From contig CAMPBT010000002.1 in NCBI GenBank assembly GCA_946641515.1, positions 129,471 through 193,470 on the forward strand: a stretch of DNA of 64,000 nt, written 5' to 3'. Position numbers and translations under genes: made by a program. The DNA comes from an uncultured Bacillales bacterium. Lineage in GTDB: Bacteria > Bacillota_I > Bacilli_A > RFN20 > CAG-449. The notes under the pieces are model-generated. The model was not told the DNA's origin. It made no database searches and saw only the letters and a list, made by a program, of their open reading frames with translations. Shown here one piece after another: positions 1 through 16,919 of the stretch (its first letter is position 1; the number at the start of each line of letters is the position of its first letter).

Positions 1-696
1 TACTGAATCATAACCATTAGTTTCTTCAAGCATTCTTCTACTCATTGTCGCACCAGAACCATTAACTCTAGCACTTAATCCAAGAACTTCTTTTCCTCTT
101 CCCCCAAATCTAGAATCAAATGCATAGAAGAAAGCACATGCTTTAGTAAAGAAATTTTGATTACCATTAATTGCCCCTTCATAAGGACGAGCAAAGTCTA
201 CTCCACTTTGATATGCATCATTCATAAGCTGTGAAAATTCAGGATTAATATGATTATCAGCATCTAAATGAATAACAAGTTCAGCATCTTTATCATTCTT
301 TAAAATGTAATCAATGCCATATTTTAATGGATATGCCGCCATATGATGAGCAGGATCTGGATCATTATGAATTAATACAATTGCGCCTGCTTCACGTGCT
401 AAATCTGCAGTATTATCTGTACAGTTATCTGCAACTACATAAACATCAAATTTATCTCTAGGATATTTTTGACTTTTAATGACATCTTCTACTGTACTCT
501 TAATAACGCTAGATTCATTATAAGCAGGAATTACATAAGCAATTCGAGCCTGTTTATCAGATTTTTTAAAATCAATTCTCTTATGGAAGAAAGCTGCAAA
601 AACTTCAATAAATTGTAAAAGAAGTGGGATTCCAAAGAACCCAATAGCAATATAATTAATAATGCTTAAAACTCTATATAAATATTCGTACCACAT
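1..696 (-). CDS. Family 2 glycosyltransferase, membrane-anchored (PgaC/IcaA-like architecture); N-terminal part only, gene continues past window start
   Basis: Minus-strand ORF starting at an ATG (plus-strand cat at 694-696) and running off the window edge. Translation begins MWYEYLYRVLSIINYIAIGFFGIPLL (TM helix), then IAYVIPAYNESSVI, VYVVADNCTDNT and HLDADN, the typical GT2 DxD-type motifs. Confidence 0.6.
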   Translation of the reverse strand, partial: MWYEYLYRVLSIINYIAIGFFGIPLLLQFIEVFAAFFHKRIDFKKSDKQARIAYVIPAYNESSVIKSTVEDVIKSQKYPRDKFDVYVVADNCTDNTADLAREAGAIVLIHNDPDPAHHMAAYPLKYGIDYILKNDKDAELVIHLDADNHINPEFSQLMNDAYQSGVDFARPYEGAINGNQNFFTKACAFFYAFDSRFGGRGKEVLGLSARVNGSGATMSRRMLEETNGYDSV

Positions 697-785
697 ATGA
701 TTAAAGTATAACTTTAATATGCTCTTATTTCAACAATTTAACACTTGTATTTTTTTGTACCAAAAAAGCGAAGTAAGTAACTCCG

Positions 786-1472
786 CTAAAAAATATATTT
801 ATTATTTATTGTTTCTTCATAAAAGACGTCAATGCTTTCAATAGGAATAGAATATGCATAAGGGTTAGATTCTAAGGTAAATGAAGTTATTCCTACTAAT
901 TCATTATTTAGATTAAATAACCCACCTCCAGAATTACCTGATGAAATTAAATTATCACTACAAATATATTCTTTATTATTAACTAAAACTTTATTTAAAC
1001 TAACTATTCCTTTAGATAAAGTTAAGCCTTGATTAGACACATTTCCTAAAGAATATACTTCATCACCAACATTAACTTTATTACTACCAATCAAAACTGG
1101 CTTATGTTTATTGTCATCTACTTTAAATATCGCTAAATCAGATTCTACATTAACGTTTATTAATTCAAATTTAGTATATTCATCTTCATCTGCATACCTA
1201 TAAGAGAAATCAGTATATATATTTTCTCCATTATTATCTAAATTTACGACATGAGCATTAGTTATAAAATAACTATCTTTATAGCAACAAGCAGTACCAT
1301 ATGAAATGATACCAAATGTTGATTCTGCTTTTATTTCAACAACTGAATATAGATTTTCTTTATAATAATCGATTTTATATTCTTTAGAATTTAGTTTAGT
1401 AATTAAATAAACCGATAAACATATATTAAATACAGATAATACTGATAAGATTGTTATTAACACTTTTTTCAT
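786..1472 (-). CDS. Membrane-anchored trypsin-like (S1/HtrA-like, no PDZ) serine protease
   Basis: N-terminal TM helix. Catalytic triad motifs TNAHVV (His), DLAIFKV (Asp) and GNSGGGLF (Ser). Start chosen at MKKVLIT, which has GGTGAG upstream; the alternative MGEK start at 1484 has no RBS. Confidence 0.6.
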   Translation of the reverse strand: MKKVLITILSVLSVFNICLSVYLITKLNSKEYKIDYYKENLYSVVEIKAESTFGIISYGTACCYKDSYFITNAHVVNLDNNGENIYTDFSYRYADEDEYTKFELINVNVESDLAIFKVDDNKHKPVLIGSNKVNVGDEVYSLGNVSNQGLTLSKGIVSLNKVLVNNKEYICSDNLISSGNSGGGLFNLNNELVGITSFTLESNPYAYSIPIESIDVFYEETINNKYIF

Positions 1473-1720
1473 TTTCTCACCCACGATAAGTTATAAATAT
1501 TAATTCTTTTCAATTGCTTCCAAAGAATCTGCTTGGAACATAATGCAGTGCATATACTCGTTTAATAGCATAACAAAATATATTTCACCCTCATACTTTA
1601 CAAGATTAAAATCTAAAACAACATCTAATAGTTTCATTCCAACCAACTTTTTGTTATCCAAATATAAATTTGTTGATTGCTCTTTTCTTATGATAAAACT
1701 AAGAGATAACATAAATACAA

Positions 1721-2464
1721 TTACAAATTAATCTCTTCCCATTCCTTTTCATCTCTTTTCTTAAAATTATATTTATATTCATGATGAGAAGGATAATCTT
1801 CTTTCATAGCTTTTTTATGACATATTAATAAATCATCTACATAATCCAATTTTTTCTCTTTACAAAATTGAATTAACATTTTCATTGCAGGTTGTAAAAA
1901 CAGGCCATATTTAGGATAAACTTTATTAATAAATATTTTCATTAATCTATCAAACACGTCCATTTTATTTGCATTATATAAATCCGGAAATAGACCTATA
2001 TACCATTCATCTAAAACTATTATCTTTTTTCCATCCAATCTACATTTTCTATCTGTCCCTATATACATTCTATTTCTTTCTCTTTCAGAATTAGTATGAG
2101 TACAATTCTTAAATGTATAAAAGTCAAAGATATCATATTCTAATGCAACATCATAAAGATGTTCTAGTTCATTATATACTTCCGGTTTAGCATTTCTATA
2201 TGCAATGGACAAAATAAATAAGCCATTAATACTCTCTAAATTCGATAATAATTTATTATTATAATTATCATGCCAAAATTCATTTTCTTCATTTATTAAT
2301 CCTACATACTGAAAAAAATTTTTTTGCATATTAAATTGTTTTTCAGTTCTCCATTCTAACAACATTTCATCAGTAATATGGTAATAGTTTCTTTTTTCTT
2401 CATCAATAATGAAATCATCTCCAAATCCACTATAAATTTCTTTTAATTCTTCTAAAGTTAGCAT
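1721..2464 (-). CDS. Hypothetical 247-aa cytoplasmic protein, paralog A of a duplicated pair
   Basis: ORF with strong RBS (GAGGAGATAAATAAATTTATG). About 85% identical to the ORF at 3372-4115: N-terminal 77 aa and C-terminal ~90 aa are identical, the middle is variable. Confidence 0.65.
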   Translation of the reverse strand: MLTLEELKEIYSGFGDDFIIDEEKRNYYHITDEMLLEWRTEKQFNMQKNFFQYVGLINEENEFWHDNYNNKLLSNLESINGLFILSIAYRNAKPEVYNELEHLYDVALEYDIFDFYTFKNCTHTNSERERNRMYIGTDRKCRLDGKKIIVLDEWYIGLFPDLYNANKMDVFDRLMKIFINKVYPKYGLFLQPAMKMLIQFCKEKKLDYVDDLLICHKKAMKEDYPSHHEYKYNFKKRDEKEWEEINL

Positions 2465-2691
2465 AAATTTATTTATCTCCTCGTTGCTTCTTCCTTAGGT
2501 ATTGTTTGGCAATTCCACCTATATCCAAAACTATATATTGTTGCCAATTCTTTTGAATACATAGGTATATATTCCATACCATGATTTAATGGTGTTCCTG
2601 TACTATAATCAATATATCCAATTGAAGGTGTTACTAATACAAAAGTAGCATTCTTAATTATTCCCATTATTATCCATATATAATTTAATAC

Positions 2692-3345
2692 CTATACTTT
2701 GTCATAATTTCTACCACATACATTTTCAGTTAAATCTTCCCAACCTTTTTTATCTATAAAAAATGTAAACATATTATTTGATATTTCACGATAGCCACTG
2801 TATTTTATTTCATATTGTGTTGATCCAATATAGATTCTAATATTATTGCTATTATTGTTTAAAAAAGTTGCAATAGATACACCTGTCATCTTAAGTATCC
2901 ATTCTTGTACTTTTTCTTTTGTCCAACCATGTTTCTTCATTAAATCTTTAATACCTTCATTATTAAACAAATCATCTTCGGTTGGATTTTTATATGTATC
3001 ATTATAAGTATTATTATTTGTATTAGTTTGAGTATTTGTTAGTTCACTTGCTGTTTTAGCAGCTACATATTGTTGAATTAAAGTACTTACCCAATAAATT
3101 AGAGGTGTTAATATATCTCCTCCTGCTCCAGCACCACTTAATGCACCATCTGAATTAATTAAGCCGCCTCCACCCATATTAATAGGATCTAACTTACACA
3201 TTGCAGCTTCATTTATTTCTTCATCAATACTTCGTTCAATAATAGTAGGTTCACTAATAGATACATCATTACTATCTTTAGGCATTACTACTATGCTTAA
3301 AAGAATAGAAAATAATAGTACTATAATTTTTAATTTCTTTTTCAT
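2692..3345 (-). CDS. Secreted Gly-rich protein of unknown function (signal peptide)
   Basis: MKKKLKIIVLLFSILLSIVVMP signal peptide, GAGGGGGG RBS, and a Gly-rich segment MGGGGLINSDGALSGAGAGGD followed by a hydrophobic LTPLIYWVSTLIQQYVAA stretch. Confidence 0.55.
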   Translation of the reverse strand: MKKKLKIIVLLFSILLSIVVMPKDSNDVSISEPTIIERSIDEEINEAAMCKLDPINMGGGGLINSDGALSGAGAGGDILTPLIYWVSTLIQQYVAAKTASELTNTQTNTNNNTYNDTYKNPTEDDLFNNEGIKDLMKKHGWTKEKVQEWILKMTGVSIATFLNNNSNNIRIYIGSTQYEIKYSGYREISNNMFTFFIDKKGWEDLTENVCGRNYDKV

Positions 3346-3371
3346 TATTCCCCCCTCGTGTAATAATTTAA

Positions 3372-4115
3372 TTACAAATTAATCTCTTCCCATTCCTTTT
3401 CATCTCTTTTCTTAAAATTATATTTATATTCATGATGAGAAGGATAATCTTCTTTCATAGCTTTTTTATGACATATTAATAAATCATCTACATAATCCAA
3501 TTTTTTCTCTTTACAAAATTGAATTAACATTTTCATTGCAGGTTGTAAAAATAGACCATATTTAGGATAAACTTTATTAATAAATATCTTCATTAATCTA
3601 TCAAACACATCCATTTTATTTGCCTTATATAAATTTGGAAATAAACCTATATACCATTCATCAACTATTATCGTTTTCTTTCCTTCTTCTCTATACCTAT
3701 AATCTTTACCGATATACATTTCATTTCTATCTCTTTCAGAATTAGTATGAGTACAATTCTTAAATGTATAAAAATCAAAGATATCATATTCTAATGCAAC
3801 ATCATAAAGATGTTCTAGTTCATCATATACTTCCGGTTTGGCATTTCTATATGCAATGGACAAATCAAAAATAACATTAATTCTTTCTAAATTAGATAGT
3901 AATTTATTATTGTAATTATCATGCCAAAATTCATTTTCTTCATTTATTAATCCTACATACTGAAAAAAATTTTTTTGCATATTAAATTGTTTTTCAGTTC
4001 TCCATTCTAACAACATTTCATCAGTAATATGGTAATAGTTTCTTTTTTCTTCATCAATAATGAAATCATCTCCAAATCCACTATAAATTTCTTTTAATTC
4101 TTCTAAAGTTAGCAT
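3372..4115 (-). CDS. Hypothetical 247-aa cytoplasmic protein, paralog B
   Basis: Same RBS and start context as paralog A. Differs only in a clustered mid-region, e.g. GTDRKCRLDGKKIIVL versus GKDYRYREEGKKTIIV. Confidence 0.65.
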   Translation of the reverse strand: MLTLEELKEIYSGFGDDFIIDEEKRNYYHITDEMLLEWRTEKQFNMQKNFFQYVGLINEENEFWHDNYNNKLLSNLERINVIFDLSIAYRNAKPEVYDELEHLYDVALEYDIFDFYTFKNCTHTNSERDRNEMYIGKDYRYREEGKKTIIVDEWYIGLFPNLYKANKMDVFDRLMKIFINKVYPKYGLFLQPAMKMLIQFCKEKKLDYVDDLLICHKKAMKEDYPSHHEYKYNFKKRDEKEWEEINL

Positions 4116-4331
4116 AAATTTATTTATCTCCTCGTTGCTTCTTCCATAGGTATTGTTTGGTTATTCCACCTATAATTAAATCTATATATTGTTGCTAGTT
4201 CTTTTGTTTTGTCACTATTTTTATTATTAATTACAAAATACCATAGTTCTTTTAACAATTCAATTAATTTTGTAACAATAGTAAATTTGCAAAAAAAAGG
4301 CAACTTTTCAGTTGTCTTCAATATTACATAA

Positions 4332-4407
4332 TGGTGGAGCTGAAGAGGATCGAACTCTCTACCTCCTGAATGCAAATCAGGCGCTCTCCCAGGTGAGCTA
4401 CAGCCCC
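4332..4407 (-). tRNA. tRNA-Ala (anticodon UGC)
   Basis: Reverse complement reads GGGGCTGTAGCTCACCTGGGAGAGCGCCTGATTTGCATTCAGGAGGTAGAGAGTTCGATCCTCTTCAGCTCCACCA. It folds as a cloverleaf with the G3:U70 Ala identity pair and an encoded CCA. Confidence 0.9.
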
Positions 4408-4448
4408 ATATGTATATCCACAGTCCGCGAGGGACTGATGTAATTAAA

Positions 4449-4525
4449 TGGTCGGGAAAACAGGATTTGAACCTGCGACACCCTGGTCCCAAACCAGGTG
4501 CTCTACCAAGCTGAGCTATTTCCCG
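4449..4525 (-). tRNA. tRNA-Pro (anticodon UGG)
   Basis: Reverse complement reads CGGGAAATAGCTCAGCTTGGTAGAGCACCTGGTTTGGGACCAGGGTGTCGCAGGTTCAAATCCTGTTTTCCCGACCA, with anticodon loop TTTGGGA. Confidence 0.9.
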
Positions 4526-4533
4526 AAATTGCA

Positions 4534-4610
4534 TGGCGCGCTAAGCAAGAATCGAACTCGCAACCTCCAGATTCGTAGTCTGGCACTCTATCCAGTTGAG
4601 CTATTAGCGC
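4534..4610 (-). tRNA. tRNA-Arg (anticodon ACG)
   Basis: Reverse complement reads GCGCTAATAGCTCAACTGGATAGAGTGCCAGACTACGAATCTGGAGGTTGCGAGTTCGATTCTTGCTTAGCGCGCCA, with anticodon loop CTACGAA. Confidence 0.9.
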
Positions 4611-4692
4611 AATGCTTGTTAATAGTACAACTTCTAGATATTTTTTTCAAGAGTTTTTCTAAAGAATTTTTAGGTTTCTCACTTATTTGTAA

Positions 4693-4767
4693 TGGAGGTT
4701 CCTAACGGATTCGAACCGATGGTCATTGAGTTGCAGTCAATTGCCTTACCAACTTGGCTAAGGAACC
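4693..4767 (-). tRNA. tRNA-Cys (anticodon GCA)
   Basis: Reverse complement reads GGTTCCTTAGCCAAGTTGGTAAGGCAATTGACTGCAACTCAATGACCATCGGTTCGAATCCGTTAGGAACCTCCA, with anticodon loop CTGCAAC. Confidence 0.88.
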
Positions 4768-4844
4768 ATTTCCATCAGCGATATTAATATTATCAAAACG
4801 ACAATATTAATGCAACTAATTTTTATCAAAAATAAATAAAAAAT

Positions 4845-5165
4845 TTATATACCCAAAAATAATTTAATTATAGTGATGATTAATATGACTATTCCAATTG
4901 ATATACCAATCCAGTTTAGTTGAATATTTTCTTTCTTTTTAGCCTTAGATAAACCAACAATCCCTAAGATAATGCCAATAATCCCGCCCAAGCAGCCGAA
5001 AACAATTGATAAAATACCGCAAGTTCTTGCAGTTTTTTCATCACTAGATTCAGTAGAAGATAAATTGATATTTGAATTTTCTACTGTAGAATTTTGTTTC
5101 ATTCCACAATAAGGACAGAAAGCATCATCTTCTCTAATTTCTTTTCCACAATTTGAGCAAAACAT
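4845..5165 (-). CDS. Zinc-ribbon (CxxC..CxxC) membrane protein, CD225/dispanin-like
   Basis: MFCSNCGKEI...CPYCG zinc ribbon, then hydrophobic segments (TCGILSIVFGCLGGIIGIILGIVGL and IGISIGIVILIITIIKLFLGI). Confidence 0.5.
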   Translation of the reverse strand: MFCSNCGKEIREDDAFCPYCGMKQNSTVENSNINLSSTESSDEKTARTCGILSIVFGCLGGIIGIILGIVGLSKAKKKENIQLNWIGISIGIVILIITIIKLFLGI

Positions 5166-5179
5166 ATAATTTCTCCAAA

Positions 5180-5518
5180 CTAGAATTCTTCATCAGGAAT
5201 TAATAACATAAATAATCCAGCTAATAATCCATTAAAAATTAAGCAAACAATTCCAATACCTACTAAATCATCTCTATTATTCGCAGAATTTAATTTGTTT
5301 AAACCGATAATACCTGTAATTAAAGGAATAATCATCCAGAATTCAACTATAATACTAAGGATTAAAAAAACTTTAGCAAGAGTGTGGAATGTAGTAGGTT
5401 TATTTCCACTATAAGATACATCAATAGTTTCTGATGCCTTATTTACAGCTTTTCCACATGACGGACAGAACTTTGAATCTTCATCAAGTAATGCACCACA
5501 ATATCTACAATATTTCAT
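5180..5518 (-). CDS. Zinc-ribbon membrane protein, tandem paralog of the preceding gene
   Basis: MKYCRYCGALL...CPSCGK zinc ribbon plus hydrophobic helices; same architecture as 4845-5165. Confidence 0.5.
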   Translation of the reverse strand: MKYCRYCGALLDEDSKFCPSCGKAVNKASETIDVSYSGNKPTTFHTLAKVFLILSIIVEFWMIIPLITGIIGLNKLNSANNRDDLVGIGIVCLIFNGLLAGLFMLLIPDEEF

Positions 5519-13018: not shown

Positions 13019-14929
13019 ATGGCAAATTACGAAGATAACAAAATTGTCGATTACGAATCAAATACTTCTCTATACAAGATGGATGAAAAAAAAGATAAGA
13101 AACACATAGTAAAAGAAGTTTTATTTTGGGTCTTCTTCCCTATAGTATTCTTACTATTAAGTGCGATTCTTATTTTCTACATGGATTTAACAGATGGTCC
13201 ACTCATCTTCTTCATTTTAATGTTACTACTCTTAGTAACGCTTGCAGTACTTCGTATCATCTTTAGAAAAAAGAAATGGTATATCGGGGTTGCCACTTGG
13301 ATAGGATTTATTGTATTAAGCACTTTAATTCTAGATTTTTCTAAACCAGGTCTAGAATATAGACCTGCAGTATTAAATGCAAGTCCAGAAAAGACCGAAG
13401 TACTCTCTTTAAAAGATGGTAAAGTTCAAGGCGTTTATAACGAAGATAAATCAGTAATGGTATATGCTGGTATTCCATACGCTAAAGCACCTATTGGTGA
13501 CTTAAGATGGAAAGAGCCTCAAGATGTAGAGCCTTGGAATGATGTACTAGATTGTTCATATTTTAGAGCCAAATCAATGCAAAAAACATATGATTCAGTT
13601 ACTAATAATTTAGTAGATATATACGCTCAAAAATCATGGCATCCAAATTATTTAGAGCAAAAGATTGAAATCTCATCTGAAGATTCTCTCTACGTCAATA
13701 TTTGGAAACCTAATACAACTGAAACTAATTTACCTGTTCTTGTTTATATCCACGGAGGTTCATTAACTACCGGCTCTCCTTCATTTTATGCATATAATGG
13801 AGAAAATATGGCCAAAAACGGCATTATTCAAGTTAATATTTCTTATCGTCTTGGAGTATTTGGTTATCTAGCATTAGAAGAACTTCAAAATGAATCTCCT
13901 AACCATACTACTGGAAACTATGGATTACTCGATCAAATCAAAGCTCTTGAATGGATAAATGAAAATATCGAATCCTTTGGAGGAAATAAAAACAATATCA
14001 CTATTGCAGGTGAATCTGCAGGTTCTTCTTCAGTAAGCGCAATATGTGCTTCTCCACTTGCAAAAGGTTTATTCCAAAAAGCTATTGGAGAATCTTCTTC
14101 AGTAGTTCTTACTACTCCTCCACATACATTTAGAACATTAGAAAGTGCTAAAGCAGTAGGAAGATCCGTCTTAACTGAATTTAATTGTAAAAATGTCAGT
14201 GAATTACGTAAGATTTCCGCGGACGAATTAGTTAATACAAAATCCACTAACTCTTCAATGACAGTTGATGGTTATGCTCTTCCTAAAACACCATATCAAC
14301 TCTATTTAGATGGAGAAGCAAGTGATGTCCCATTATTAAATGGTTTTAACTCAATGGAAGCAGATGCATTCACTGTTCCAACATATTTATCTTCTGGTCA
14401 ACCAAATGTTTCTAACTCTAAAGCTAGATTAATTACAGTATTTAATGATGAAGATATCGTTAATAAAATGATGGCAACTCAGTCTTGGAATAACGACGAA
14501 GAAGCATTTAGATCATTTAACAATATTATTGCAACATACTGGTTTGCTCATCCTCATTATTCTTGGAGTAAAGCAATTAAAGAAAATTATTCTTCACCAG
14601 TCTACACATATTATTTTGATAAAGAAAATGGATATTATTCAGGCTACCATTCAGGTGAACTTCCATATGTATTTAATACATTAAGTCGTAATAAGAATTT
14701 AACTTTCGCATATGATGAATCTGATTACAATCTAGCAAAAACTATGAATTCAGCCTGGGCAGCATTCATTAAAACCGGTAACCCTTCAACTTCATCATTA
14801 ACTTGGGAAGAATGGGACAAAGACCAAACTAACGTTATGCATTTTGGTAGCACTGTTGAAATGATGAAAGATAAATATTCTGATTTATATAAAATCTTTG
14901 AAGAATATTATTCTAAAGCTTCAGTTTAA
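13019..14929 (+). CDS. Type-B carboxylesterase/lipase family protein with N-terminal multi-TM anchor
   Basis: Oxyanion-hole motif VLVYIHGGSLTTGS and nucleophile-elbow motif GESAGSSSV (GxSxG). About 110 N-terminal residues form 3 hydrophobic helices. RBS GAGG. Confidence 0.75.
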   Translation: MANYEDNKIVDYESNTSLYKMDEKKDKKHIVKEVLFWVFFPIVFLLLSAILIFYMDLTDGPLIFFILMLLLLVTLAVLRIIFRKKKWYIGVATWIGFIVLSTLILDFSKPGLEYRPAVLNASPEKTEVLSLKDGKVQGVYNEDKSVMVYAGIPYAKAPIGDLRWKEPQDVEPWNDVLDCSYFRAKSMQKTYDSVTNNLVDIYAQKSWHPNYLEQKIEISSEDSLYVNIWKPNTTETNLPVLVYIHGGSLTTGSPSFYAYNGENMAKNGIIQVNISYRLGVFGYLALEELQNESPNHTTGNYGLLDQIKALEWINENIESFGGNKNNITIAGESAGSSSVSAICASPLAKGLFQKAIGESSSVVLTTPPHTFRTLESAKAVGRSVLTEFNCKNVSELRKISADELVNTKSTNSSMTVDGYALPKTPYQLYLDGEASDVPLLNGFNSMEADAFTVPTYLSSGQPNVSNSKARLITVFNDEDIVNKMMATQSWNNDEEAFRSFNNIIATYWFAHPHYSWSKAIKENYSSPVYTYYFDKENGYYSGYHSGELPYVFNTLSRNKNLTFAYDESDYNLAKTMNSAWAAFIKTGNPSTSSLTWEEWDKDQTNVMHFGSTVEMMKDKYSDLYKIFEEYYSKASV

Positions 14930-16919
14930 TAGTTCCCTCTTCATCAGTTCTTCTATAAGGTAAATTTAATTTTTCTAAACGTACAACCACTTCTTTATTC
15001 GGGTGGTTGTATTTATTTTTTAAGCCACAAGAAATAATACTTATTTTTGGTTTATATGTATTTAATAATTCATATGAAGATGATGTAGATGAACCATGAT
15101 GTCCTAGTTTTAATATATCTACTTTTAATTTTGGATAGTCGTTAACTATCTTTTTTTCTATGCTCGTAGGTGCATCTCCCATTAACATAATCCCTTTATT
15201 ATTAATTGAAGTATATAAAACTAAGGAATAATCATTTTCTTCTTTCCACATTGATGAATAAGTATTTAGATTAAAGAATTTAATATCAGTAAATGATTTT
15301 ACTTTAAAATTATTTTCTTCAATTATTTCTCCTATATAAAAATGTTCTTTTAAAGATTCTAACGCTCCAAAATGGTCATAGTCATGATGAGTAATAAAGA
15401 CTGCATCCAGTTTATATATTCCGTTCTTCTTAAAATAAGGAATTAATGTTTCTAAGGCAAGATCTATAGAACTAACTCCTCCAGTATCAATTAGATATGA
15501 CTTACCTTTATTAACAATTAAGGTTGAATCACCTTGTCCTACATTAATAAAAGAAATATATGAGCTATATTTATTTTCTATCGGTAATAAAGAAATTAAT
15601 ATTAATGTAGTTAATCCTCCTAAAGAATATAAAGTCTTCTTTTTTCTTTTAGTTTCAATAAAATAAATACCTAAAAATAGGAATAAATAATATAAAATAA
15701 CAAGACCTATATTAAATCTAGAAGTATAGATTTTTATATTAACTTTATCAAAATTTACTAGTAAAAAATAAAAACCATTAGATAAGATTTTAAAGATTGG
15801 CCATAAAGGTATAAGAAGGCCAATTAAGCCTAAAATAAAAATTATTAAAATAAGAGGACTAATTACTAATGCAAAAGGTAATGACAATAAACAAAAATAA
15901 CCATTACTAATTAGTAACAAAGGAATGAAATATAAATTGATAATAACAATATAATAAAACTTTCTTTTATCAGTTCTAAAAGTTAAGGCTCCCTCTTTAG
16001 AATACATTAGTAGTAAATATAATGGTAAAGAATAATAAAAATTAATAGATGAAAAATAAGATGGAAATATTAATCCTATAAAAATATAAGTTATCCCTAG
16101 CAAATCTATTTTAGATAATTTATTTTTAAAAAAATTATAATTTATAAAAACTAATATTTTTAAGAGTACTAATTTAATTAATGACAATTTATAATTTGAA
16201 ATAATTAAAAAGAAAATACTAAAGAAAATACTCACTTTATTTATTGTCTTTTCTTTACATTTTATACCTACTATTTTTTCAATAATCTCAAGTAAGAAAT
16301 AAACGTGGAAAGATGATATTGACAAATAATAACTAAGCGAAGAAGAATATATTAAAGACGAATAATCTTTTGATGAAGATAAATTAAATAATAAAGTCGA
16401 TAGGATAGATTTAGTATTAGTATCATATAAACTTAAATTATTATTTATTAAATGTTTGATTCTAAATAACGATAAAAAATGTGGAGTAATTGATGCATTA
16501 TTAATCATCTTTTTTACTCCATATGTTTTTAAATATTCATTAAAATTAAACTGACTTTCGTAATAAGTAAATGCTGCTTTTTCAACTTTTCCATCCACAG
16601 TTAAAATATCAAATACTTCATAAGTATTTAACTCGTTATAAACATAATATCTGCCGCTTATAGTTTGAAGGATGAAATAGGAATTTTTAGAAACAATTAC
16701 CACTCCAAAATGTGAGTCATAACTTAAATAAATTAAAGTTAAAAGTTCTAAAGATAATCCAAGGATGAAGAATATGCATGATAATATTATACTTCTCTTT
16801 GTAGATTTACAAAAATAACTGAAAACAAAAAGCAAGACTATCCCTAGAACTTTTATATACCAATGGTTAAGAAAGCTGACTCCTAACCAAAAGTAAGCAA
16901 AGAATAATAAGAAATTCAT
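14913..16919 (-). CDS. comEC: DNA internalization competence protein ComEC/Rec2
   Basis: Polytopic membrane region plus C-terminal metallo-beta-lactamase domain (VGQGDSTLI, ITHHDYDHFGAL). Confidence 0.85.
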   Translation of the reverse strand: MNFLLFFAYFWLGVSFLNHWYIKVLGIVLLFVFSYFCKSTKRSIILSCIFFILGLSLELLTLIYLSYDSHFGVVIVSKNSYFILQTISGRYYVYNELNTYEVFDILTVDGKVEKAAFTYYESQFNFNEYLKTYGVKKMINNASITPHFLSLFRIKHLINNNLSLYDTNTKSILSTLLFNLSSSKDYSSLIYSSSLSYYLSISSFHVYFLLEIIEKIVGIKCKEKTINKVSIFFSIFFLIISNYKLSLIKLVLLKILVFINYNFFKNKLSKIDLLGITYIFIGLIFPSYFSSINFYYSLPLYLLLMYSKEGALTFRTDKRKFYYIVIINLYFIPLLLISNGYFCLLSLPFALVISPLILIIFILGLIGLLIPLWPIFKILSNGFYFLLVNFDKVNIKIYTSRFNIGLVILYYLFLFLGIYFIETKRKKKTLYSLGGLTTLILISLLPIENKYSSYISFINVGQGDSTLIVNKGKSYLIDTGGVSSIDLALETLIPYFKKNGIYKLDAVFITHHDYDHFGALESLKEHFYIGEIIEENNFKVKSFTDIKFFNLNTYSSMWKEENDYSLVLYTSINNKGIMLMGDAPTSIEKKIVNDYPKLKVDILKLGHHGSSTSSSYELLNTYKPKISIISCGLKNKYNHPNKEVVVRLEKLNLPYRRTDEEGTIKLKL

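Follow-up and report, generated by a model that had tools for sequence, protein, structure and literature searches.

A two-gene module with decaying X genes and recombining Y genes in an uncultured Bacillales bacterium: a possible toxin/immunity-type locus

Introduction

Why does a bacterium keep two intact copies of one gene next to the broken copies of another? The question is raised by a locus in a stretch of 64,000 nucleotides (nt) from an uncultured Bacillales bacterium (GCA_946641515.1, contig CAMPBT010000002.1, positions 129,471-193,470), called the window below. The host lineage is placed as uncultured Bacilli/Erysipelotrichales-like. The locus contains two copies of a gene for a 247-amino acid (aa) protein, here named Y_A and Y_B, together with a gene named X. 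A first-pass annotation made from the sequence described the 247-aa gene as a duplicated cassette with a hypervariable block, and likened its mosaic pattern to that of the immunity proteins of polymorphic toxin loci. On comparison with related loci the best explanation, which we give about an even chance of being right, is that X and Y are a toxin-like/immunity-like module that has been disarmed in this strain.

Results

Y directly follows X and is often kept without it

About 40 loci were collected from homologue look-ups and one metagenome scan and were annotated with profiles for X, Y and S1, a protease encoded in the same region. Roughly 40 Y domains and 15 X sequences were recovered in this way (L089-L122). 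Y is the next gene after X, on the same strand, in 23/23 loci with readable downstream sequence, whether X is intact or broken. The two genes are separated by a few to ~50 nt (8 nt in the window), and the order holds down to 36% identity for X and 34% for Y. The arrangements include X-Y, X-YY, S1-X-Y(-Y), S1-Y-X-Y (L114) and X-Y-X (L094). Y-X-Y is found in L117 and also in L121 and L122, which belong to the window's own species and have an intact X. Locus L006 was taken for an exception, an intact X followed by a Y with an internal deletion; the exception was withdrawn because the "deletion" is a scaffold gap of Ns.

Y is also found without X beside unrelated housekeeping genes such as those for GlnRS, TsaD, YbaK, PepF and MnmA. 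Tandem Y arrays occur in L105 (YY, YY, and Y plus a fragment, giving five or more Y domains), L099 and L109, and fused YY proteins are represented by P0018 (482 aa) and by L098, L105 and L113. Paralogues within an array are 44-81% identical. In one rumen-type lineage (L099, L101, L102) a solo Y is preceded by a different, 289-aa protein (cluster c6; L101 ~1315-2181) with a signal peptide and a multi-pass C-terminus, downstream of tsaD. This protein could be an alternative partner of Y.

Many X genes are broken beside an intact Y. Several loci share the same X remnant; a TAG codon interrupts X in the window, L001 and L096; L008 has a frameshift, L003 an internal deletion and L002 a deletion. 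X is split or frameshifted in L115 and L093 with Y intact. The frameshifts may be assembly errors. In a further lineage, represented by L002 (6669-7703) and L093 (2-781), a gene for a secreted Endonuclease_1 (PF04231) immediately precedes the X-Y pair, and both contigs have a deleted or frameshifted X.

The immunity-like role suggested for Y by the first-pass annotation gains support from this comparative context, not from homology. A toxin-like/immunity-like relationship is suggested by the strict X-then-Y order, the occurrence of Y alone, in arrays and in fusions, the loss of X only, the 3' remnant of X before an orphan Y, and the variation among strains. It is further suggested by the strong N-terminal hydrophobic signal or anchor of X, a kind of segment that Y lacks, by a sporadic distribution and low G+C content, and by the concerted evolution of Y with replacements concentrated in blocks.

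X is a nonsense pseudogene in this strain

A 217-aa open reading frame (ORF) between the two Y genes had been taken for an intact, secreted Gly-rich protein. It is a truncated X. Together with a 64-aa ORF (2473-2667) it forms one frame split by a single TAG. X is an intact 291-aa protein with tryptophan at this codon in L005 and in P0010 and P0011, encoded on L121 and L122, and this residue (W218) is invariant across the X family. L001 and L096 carry the identical TAG mutation. ORFs of at least 200 codons in the window end in TAA (33/42) or TAG (9/42) and never in TGA (0/42). Because TAG is an ordinary stop codon and relatives carry TGG at this position, X is a nonsense pseudogene in this strain. 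Recoding of the TAG in X was rejected on the same two grounds.

The wider set of window ORFs, those of at least 100 codons, ends in TAA (47), TAG (18) or TGA (1) (n=66). No convincing genes split by in-frame TGA were found in the 64-kb window, and tryptophan is encoded by TGG (131 codons). TGA therefore looks avoided rather than reassigned in the window.

A second copy of X once preceded Y_B. The ~90 bp before each Y gene had been described as upstream sequence that diverged more than the gene ends. The divergence stands (13 positions differ over 96 nt, 86.5% identity), but the segment is coding: it comprises the last 28 codons of X and the stop codon, and the AGGAG ribosome-binding site of Y lies within the final codons of X. 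Upstream of Y_B only this tail is left, and comparison with the intergenic region of L003 shows that the remainder, including the start region, is deleted. The same remnant is found in L001, L008, L095 and L097.

The two Y genes exchange sequence around a divergent central tract

The duplication and the clustering of differences were described correctly in the first-pass annotation. Two 846-nt repeats lie 1651 nt apart, start to start. The Y_A and Y_B proteins are 92.7% identical, with 18 residues that differ and with aa 1-77 and aa 165-247 identical. At the DNA level there are 46 differences in 34 codons, and 46/46 fall within nt 204-564 of the gene. The differences are clustered rather than random, as 0/200,000 random placements spanned so narrow an interval. 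Outside this interval no difference is left, and identity is 100% both between about -30 and +203 and between +565 and the stop codon.

Substitution rates were estimated by the Nei-Gojobori method. The central tract has a synonymous rate (dS) of 0.42 and a non-synonymous rate (dN) of 0.088, giving dN/dS 0.21. In the replacement-rich blocks, codons 78-84 and 129-151, dN/dS is 0.34 with dS saturated at ~1.1. Neither value exceeds 1, and these ratios do not support positive selection on Y or the diversifying selection proposed earlier. Replacement changes are concentrated in the blocks all the same (22 non-synonymous and 9 synonymous, versus 3 and 12 in the remainder of the tract; Fisher p = 0.0016). 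Across the whole Y family, too, variation is greatest in these indel-rich segments, and aa 151-230 form its conserved core.

Public data contain 18 distinct 247-aa Y alleles. When the segments aa 1-72, 78-84, 137-151, 161-164 and 208-219 were compared, each showed two or three discrete haplotypes, variously combined, and the B-type block was found in other strains in other combinations. Such mosaics point to recombination or gene conversion. "Hypervariable" is therefore an overstatement for a block that is polymorphic with so few alleles. As the alignments read, the central block is an old divergent tract between tracts of 100% identity.

Within each of three genomes (window, L001 and L008) the two copies agree at every one of their first 201 nt, and between these genomes this stretch differs by 4-5 nt. 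Across the central tract the copies differ by 46 nt in the window and L001 and by 0 nt in L008, where both are A-type. Copy number also varies: in L095 the X remnant is followed by a single Y identical to Y_A. Judged from these patterns, the Y copies evolve in concert through gene conversion, homologous recombination or unequal crossing-over, and the gene conversion proposed at first is supported by the identity within the window, L001 and L008 and by the homogenised tract of L008. The locus shares with gene-conversion concerted evolution in general its ends that are identical within but different between genomes, its sharp tract boundaries and its fully homogenised example. It is unlike typical cases in that at least two assemblies made independently (window and L001) retain a divergent central tract of 361 nt. 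This persistence suggests either selection for two alleles or conversion tracts that merely stop short.

We wondered whether mis-assembled strain variants could have produced the two-copy structure or the mosaic. Metagenome-type assemblies are the source of the window and of most comparison loci, and identical tracts of 180-235 nt, longer than common k-mer sizes, can give collapsed or chimeric contigs. L095, with its single copy, and L008, with two A-type copies, could have arisen in this way. However, the Y-X-Y order recurs in independent assemblies from different samples (window, L001, L008, L121 and L122) and in the distant lineages L114 and L117. Each copy also has unique flanks of its own, and the differences between the central tracts are of both kinds, synonymous and non-synonymous. 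An artefact is thus very improbable as the source of the arrangement.

A second alternative is ordinary tandem duplication with gene conversion, in which the function of the genes has nothing to do with conflict, the variable blocks are a weakly constrained loop plus an imported tract, and the decay of X is neutral loss of a dispensable surface protein. The dN/dS below 1 fits this explanation, as do the two or three alleles per block and the location of the blocks in indel-rich, poorly conserved family segments, which a low-confidence structural model places in a beta-hairpin. It does not account for a gene order, Y strictly after X, that holds at 34-36% identity, for Y arrays and fusions that recur at unrelated chromosomal sites, for the asymmetry by which X is lost and Y kept, or for the patchy distribution. 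We consider it unlikely.

X carries an N-terminal signal or anchor and Y is predicted to be cytoplasmic

Full-length X has 290-291 aa. A Lys-rich start leads into an N-terminal segment that is either a signal or a transmembrane anchor. Next come an acidic spacer and a weakly hydrophobic segment rich in Gly. An Asn/Thr-rich linker then joins these to the conserved C-terminal domain, which is ~170 aa long (about aa 120-291) and has the motifs DD, GW, YRD, KNATFVLVTP and YxxEL...GYxW. The variable segments of X are aa 195-215 and the C-terminal tail. The N-terminal hydrophobic segment is strong in all X proteins (Kyte-Doolittle 2.3-2.9). Y, of ~240 aa in the family, has a conserved helical C-terminal half and no hydrophobic segment, and is cytoplasmic by prediction.

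Both families are small. Protein collections yielded 6-8 relatives of X. For Y, only 9 relatives turned up in 5.8 billion proteins, and 10 cluster representatives in 1.84 billion. X and Y, including distant family members, had no match beyond noise in Pfam, NCBIfam, PADLOC or PHROG; in Pfam this covers 8 X and 14 Y sequences. Profile searches of the PDB with X and Y gave nothing below E = 0.2. AlphaFold2 was run on shallow alignments. The models of X (mean confidence score, pLDDT, 41.7) and Y (pLDDT 51.0) were both too poor for use; only the C-terminal helices of Y, aa 160-222, are confident.

The S1 protease is membrane-anchored and carries the motifs TNAHV, DLAIF and GNSGG, which supply His, Asp and Ser. 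It is found in an operon with X and Y in four lineages, the window's own and three others (L089-92, L106/107/115 and L114), with S1-X-Y or S1-Y-X-Y gaps of 17-30 nt in these three. It is missing beside X in L098 and L112 despite readable flanks. Its match to PADLOC, RT-Protease_XI at 5.9e-18, reflects a generic trypsin domain only.

These properties admit a third alternative, a membrane-tethered stress, signalling or anti-phage module. X would span the membrane two or three times, its conserved domain would be cytoplasmic and contact Y, S1, lying outside the cytoplasm, would cleave the acidic outer loop of X, and the Y paralogues would be diversified sensors or regulators and not give immunity to an imported toxin. 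The charge pattern of X (Lys-rich N-terminus, acidic loop, Gly-rich hydrophobic segment, Lys) fits an N-in/C-in topology under the positive-inside rule, the protease keeps its place in the operon in the four lineages, and trypsin-like domains occur in PADLOC defence models. Yet X and Y themselves have no PADLOC hit, the second and third hydrophobic segments of X lie at or below the usual transmembrane threshold, and the protease is absent beside X in two loci. The collections scanned show no association with phages or plasmids. Y arrays and fusions without X, and the repeated loss of X only, suit a protector better than a sensor that depends on its effector. This module has, in our judgement, a small chance of being correct.

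The module is accessory and sporadically distributed

A scan of species-representative contigs with the Y profile gave no match, and the module is absent from 80 related species genomes. Among these are the closest species-level relatives, with 77-81% identity in IF-2, which lack X, Y and S1, also around their tRNA cluster. The accessory character attributed to this neighbourhood at first pass is borne out, and on the genomes compared the module is accessory with a sporadic distribution. X and Y were absent from the viral contigs, phages and plasmids scanned, and a prophage or plasmid origin was dropped for this reason. G+C content is ~25% in the module region and ~30% in the window.

Discussion

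Comparison with known conflict systems

In type II toxin-antitoxin pairs both proteins are small and cytoplasmic, and the antitoxin, whose gene usually comes first, has a DNA-binding domain. The present pair departs from this plan: X bears an export or anchor signal and is encoded first, and Y is a 247-aa protein with no helix-turn-helix or other Pfam domain. Y resembles SMI1/KNR4 (SUKH) proteins, which the first-pass annotation had suggested for comparison, in being cytoplasmic, non-enzymatic in appearance and prone to tandem arrays and fusions. It differs from them in its greater length (~240 aa) and its conserved helical C-terminal half, and neither Pfam nor the PDB gave a sequence match to it at E up to 5-10.

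Polymorphic toxin systems include homogeneous polyimmunity loci and polyimmunity proteins (Zhang et al. 2012, PMC3482391). As in these, the gene for a candidate effector, which may be exported, is followed at once and in the same direction by the putative protector gene; toxin-less protector arrays and fused protector domains occur, and strains of a single species vary in copy number and content. In contrast to the systems of PMC3482391, Y matches none of the Imm, SUKH and SuFu families and X none of the Tox/Ntox families. No type V, VI or VII secretion system (T5SS, T6SS, T7SS) or RHS element is found nearby, only a Sec-type signal or anchor and a trypsin-like protease.

In Vibrio cholerae, effector displacement forms arrays of orphan immunity genes in T6SS clusters (Kirchberger et al. 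2017, PMC5361080). The present locus is like these arrays in that the presumed protector is retained after effector loss, a 3' piece of the effector remains in front of it, and clusters are mosaics made by homologous recombination. It is unlike them (PMC5361080) in that the Y genes are close paralogues (93% identity) under gene conversion, not unrelated immunity types gained horizontally, and in that the host is a low-GC, Bacilli-type bacterium without a T6SS.

Several observations weigh against a toxin/immunity pair. X, Y and their relatives show no sequence similarity to any toxin, immunity, defence or solved-structure family in the libraries searched. The X proteins are homologous over their full length. 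Conservation is highest in the C-terminal domain, with no swappable toxin cassette, and the classical polymorphic-toxin architecture implied by the first-pass annotation gains no support; exchangeable C-terminal cassettes on a constant stem are a defining feature of polymorphic toxins (PMC3482391). The topology of X is ambiguous, as two further, weakly hydrophobic segments (Kyte-Doolittle 1.0-1.66) follow the first, and X could be a membrane protein with a cytoplasmic domain. The dN/dS of Y is below 1 everywhere. Finally, the comparison loci are mostly short-read metagenome contigs, and some of the frameshifts, L095, L008 and some of the mosaics are possibly assembly artefacts.

Proposed history and function

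The locus would be a degenerate copy of a small operon of X, Y and, often, S1. In the proposed history, the ancestral state in this species would have been tRNA cluster - [X-Y] - [X-Y] - orf70 - S1, where orf70 is a small gene described below. The first X would have been deleted almost wholly, leaving the 28 codons that hold the ribosome-binding site of Y_B. The second X would then have been killed in this strain by the change of TGG to TAG, both Y genes staying intact. Exchange between the Y copies by homologous recombination or gene conversion keeps the ends alike. The older divergent tract in the middle survives this exchange and occurs in different combinations from strain to strain.

In functional terms, X may be an effector of ~290 aa that bears an export or anchor signal at its N-terminus, and Y a soluble cytoplasmic neutraliser. 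From the comparative pattern we infer that X is toxic and that Y binds and neutralises it. Specificity would reside in the central blocks of Y. The S1 protease may process X outside the cell. Two retained immunity alleles would protect the strain from kin that still make an intact X.

A larger proposal, which we put forward tentatively as a possibility well short of even, is that S1, X and Y constitute a previously undescribed system by which uncultured Bacilli of the gut and rumen antagonise other bacteria. It would combine Sec export, maturation by a protease and new toxin and immunity folds; the blocks at aa 78-84 and 129-151 would set specificity toward X variants, and Y-X-Y loci or Y arrays would serve as a recombining immunity repertoire.

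If X and Y are a true toxin/immunity pair, each would represent a new family, one of effectors and one of immunity proteins, that current profile libraries fail to detect. Maturation by a protease might also join the means of antagonism known from low-GC bacteria of the gut and rumen, which are uncultured and poorly known. The loci would then offer a compact natural series for the evolution of an immunity repertoire through duplication, gene conversion and loss of effectors: intact Y-X-Y, variants of X with nonsense, frameshift and deletion changes, single Y genes, arrays and YY fusions. If they are not, the locus is still a clear case of concerted evolution of tandem paralogues within an accessory operon.

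Organisation of the locus and neighbouring features

The genes of window 700-4800 lie on the minus strand (Table 1) in the order tRNA cluster, X remnant, Y_B, X, Y_A, orf70 and S1 protease, followed by a partial GT2 gene. The tRNA cluster, the membrane S1 protease and the GT2 gene were correctly named as neighbours in the first-pass annotation.

Table 1. Coordinates of features at the X/Y locus, in window positions.
Feature	Position	Strand	Remarks
tRNA-Cys/-Arg/-Pro/-Ala cluster	4332..4767	(-)	Upstream border of the module; border common to L001 and L003
X remnant, second copy	4124..4210	(-)	87 nt, the last 28 codons and stop; includes the Y_B ribosome-binding site
Repeat copy B (X 3' remnant and Y_B)	3365..4210	(-)	Repeat finder and pairwise alignment
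Y_B, intact 247-aa ORF	3372..4115	(-)	Preceded only by the X remnant
Y_B central divergent tract, codons 68-188	3552..3912	(-)	Copy comparison
Gene X, pseudogene in this strain	2473..3345	(-)	One frame with a single internal stop; intact homologues P0010, P0011, L005
In-frame TAG, X codon 218	2692..2694	(-)	TGG to TAG at the family-invariant Trp
Repeat copy A (X 3' end and Y_A)	1714..2559	(-)	Repeat finder and pairwise alignment
Y_A, intact 247-aa ORF	1721..2464	(-)	Directly downstream of X
Y_A central divergent tract, codons 68-188	1901..2261	(-)	Contains the replacement-rich blocks, codons 78-84 and 129-151
orf70, small ORF (70 aa)	1500..1712	(-)	Between Y_A and the protease, with gaps of 8 nt and 15 nt
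Membrane-anchored S1 protease, HtrA-like, without PDZ domain	786..1484	(-)	Trypsin_2 5.7e-20; N-terminal transmembrane segment
GT2 gene, partial	1-696	(-)	

The orf70 product is 91-100% identical in L001, L003-L005 and L008 and is kept only within the window's species. It is absent from the X/Y loci of other lineages in the annotated comparison set and had no family match in scans of the profile libraries. A scan for promoters and terminators was uninformative, with 33 promoter-like sites against 35.7 expected by chance.

Two ORFs that overlap the tRNA genes, one of 136 aa (4124-4534, minus strand) and one of 85 aa (4448-4705, plus strand), are spurious; the C-terminal 28 residues of the former are the X remnant. 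Just upstream of the tRNA cluster, two adjacent genes for paralogous small membrane proteins lie on the minus strand at 4845-5165 and 5180-5518. The proteins each have an N-terminal zinc-ribbon and a DUF4190-like transmembrane tail, and are conserved in L001, L003 and L008. The minimum of G+C content in the window (0.22-0.24, at 14913-16919 on the minus strand) is the gene for a ComEC-like 668-aa competence membrane protein, not a foreign island.

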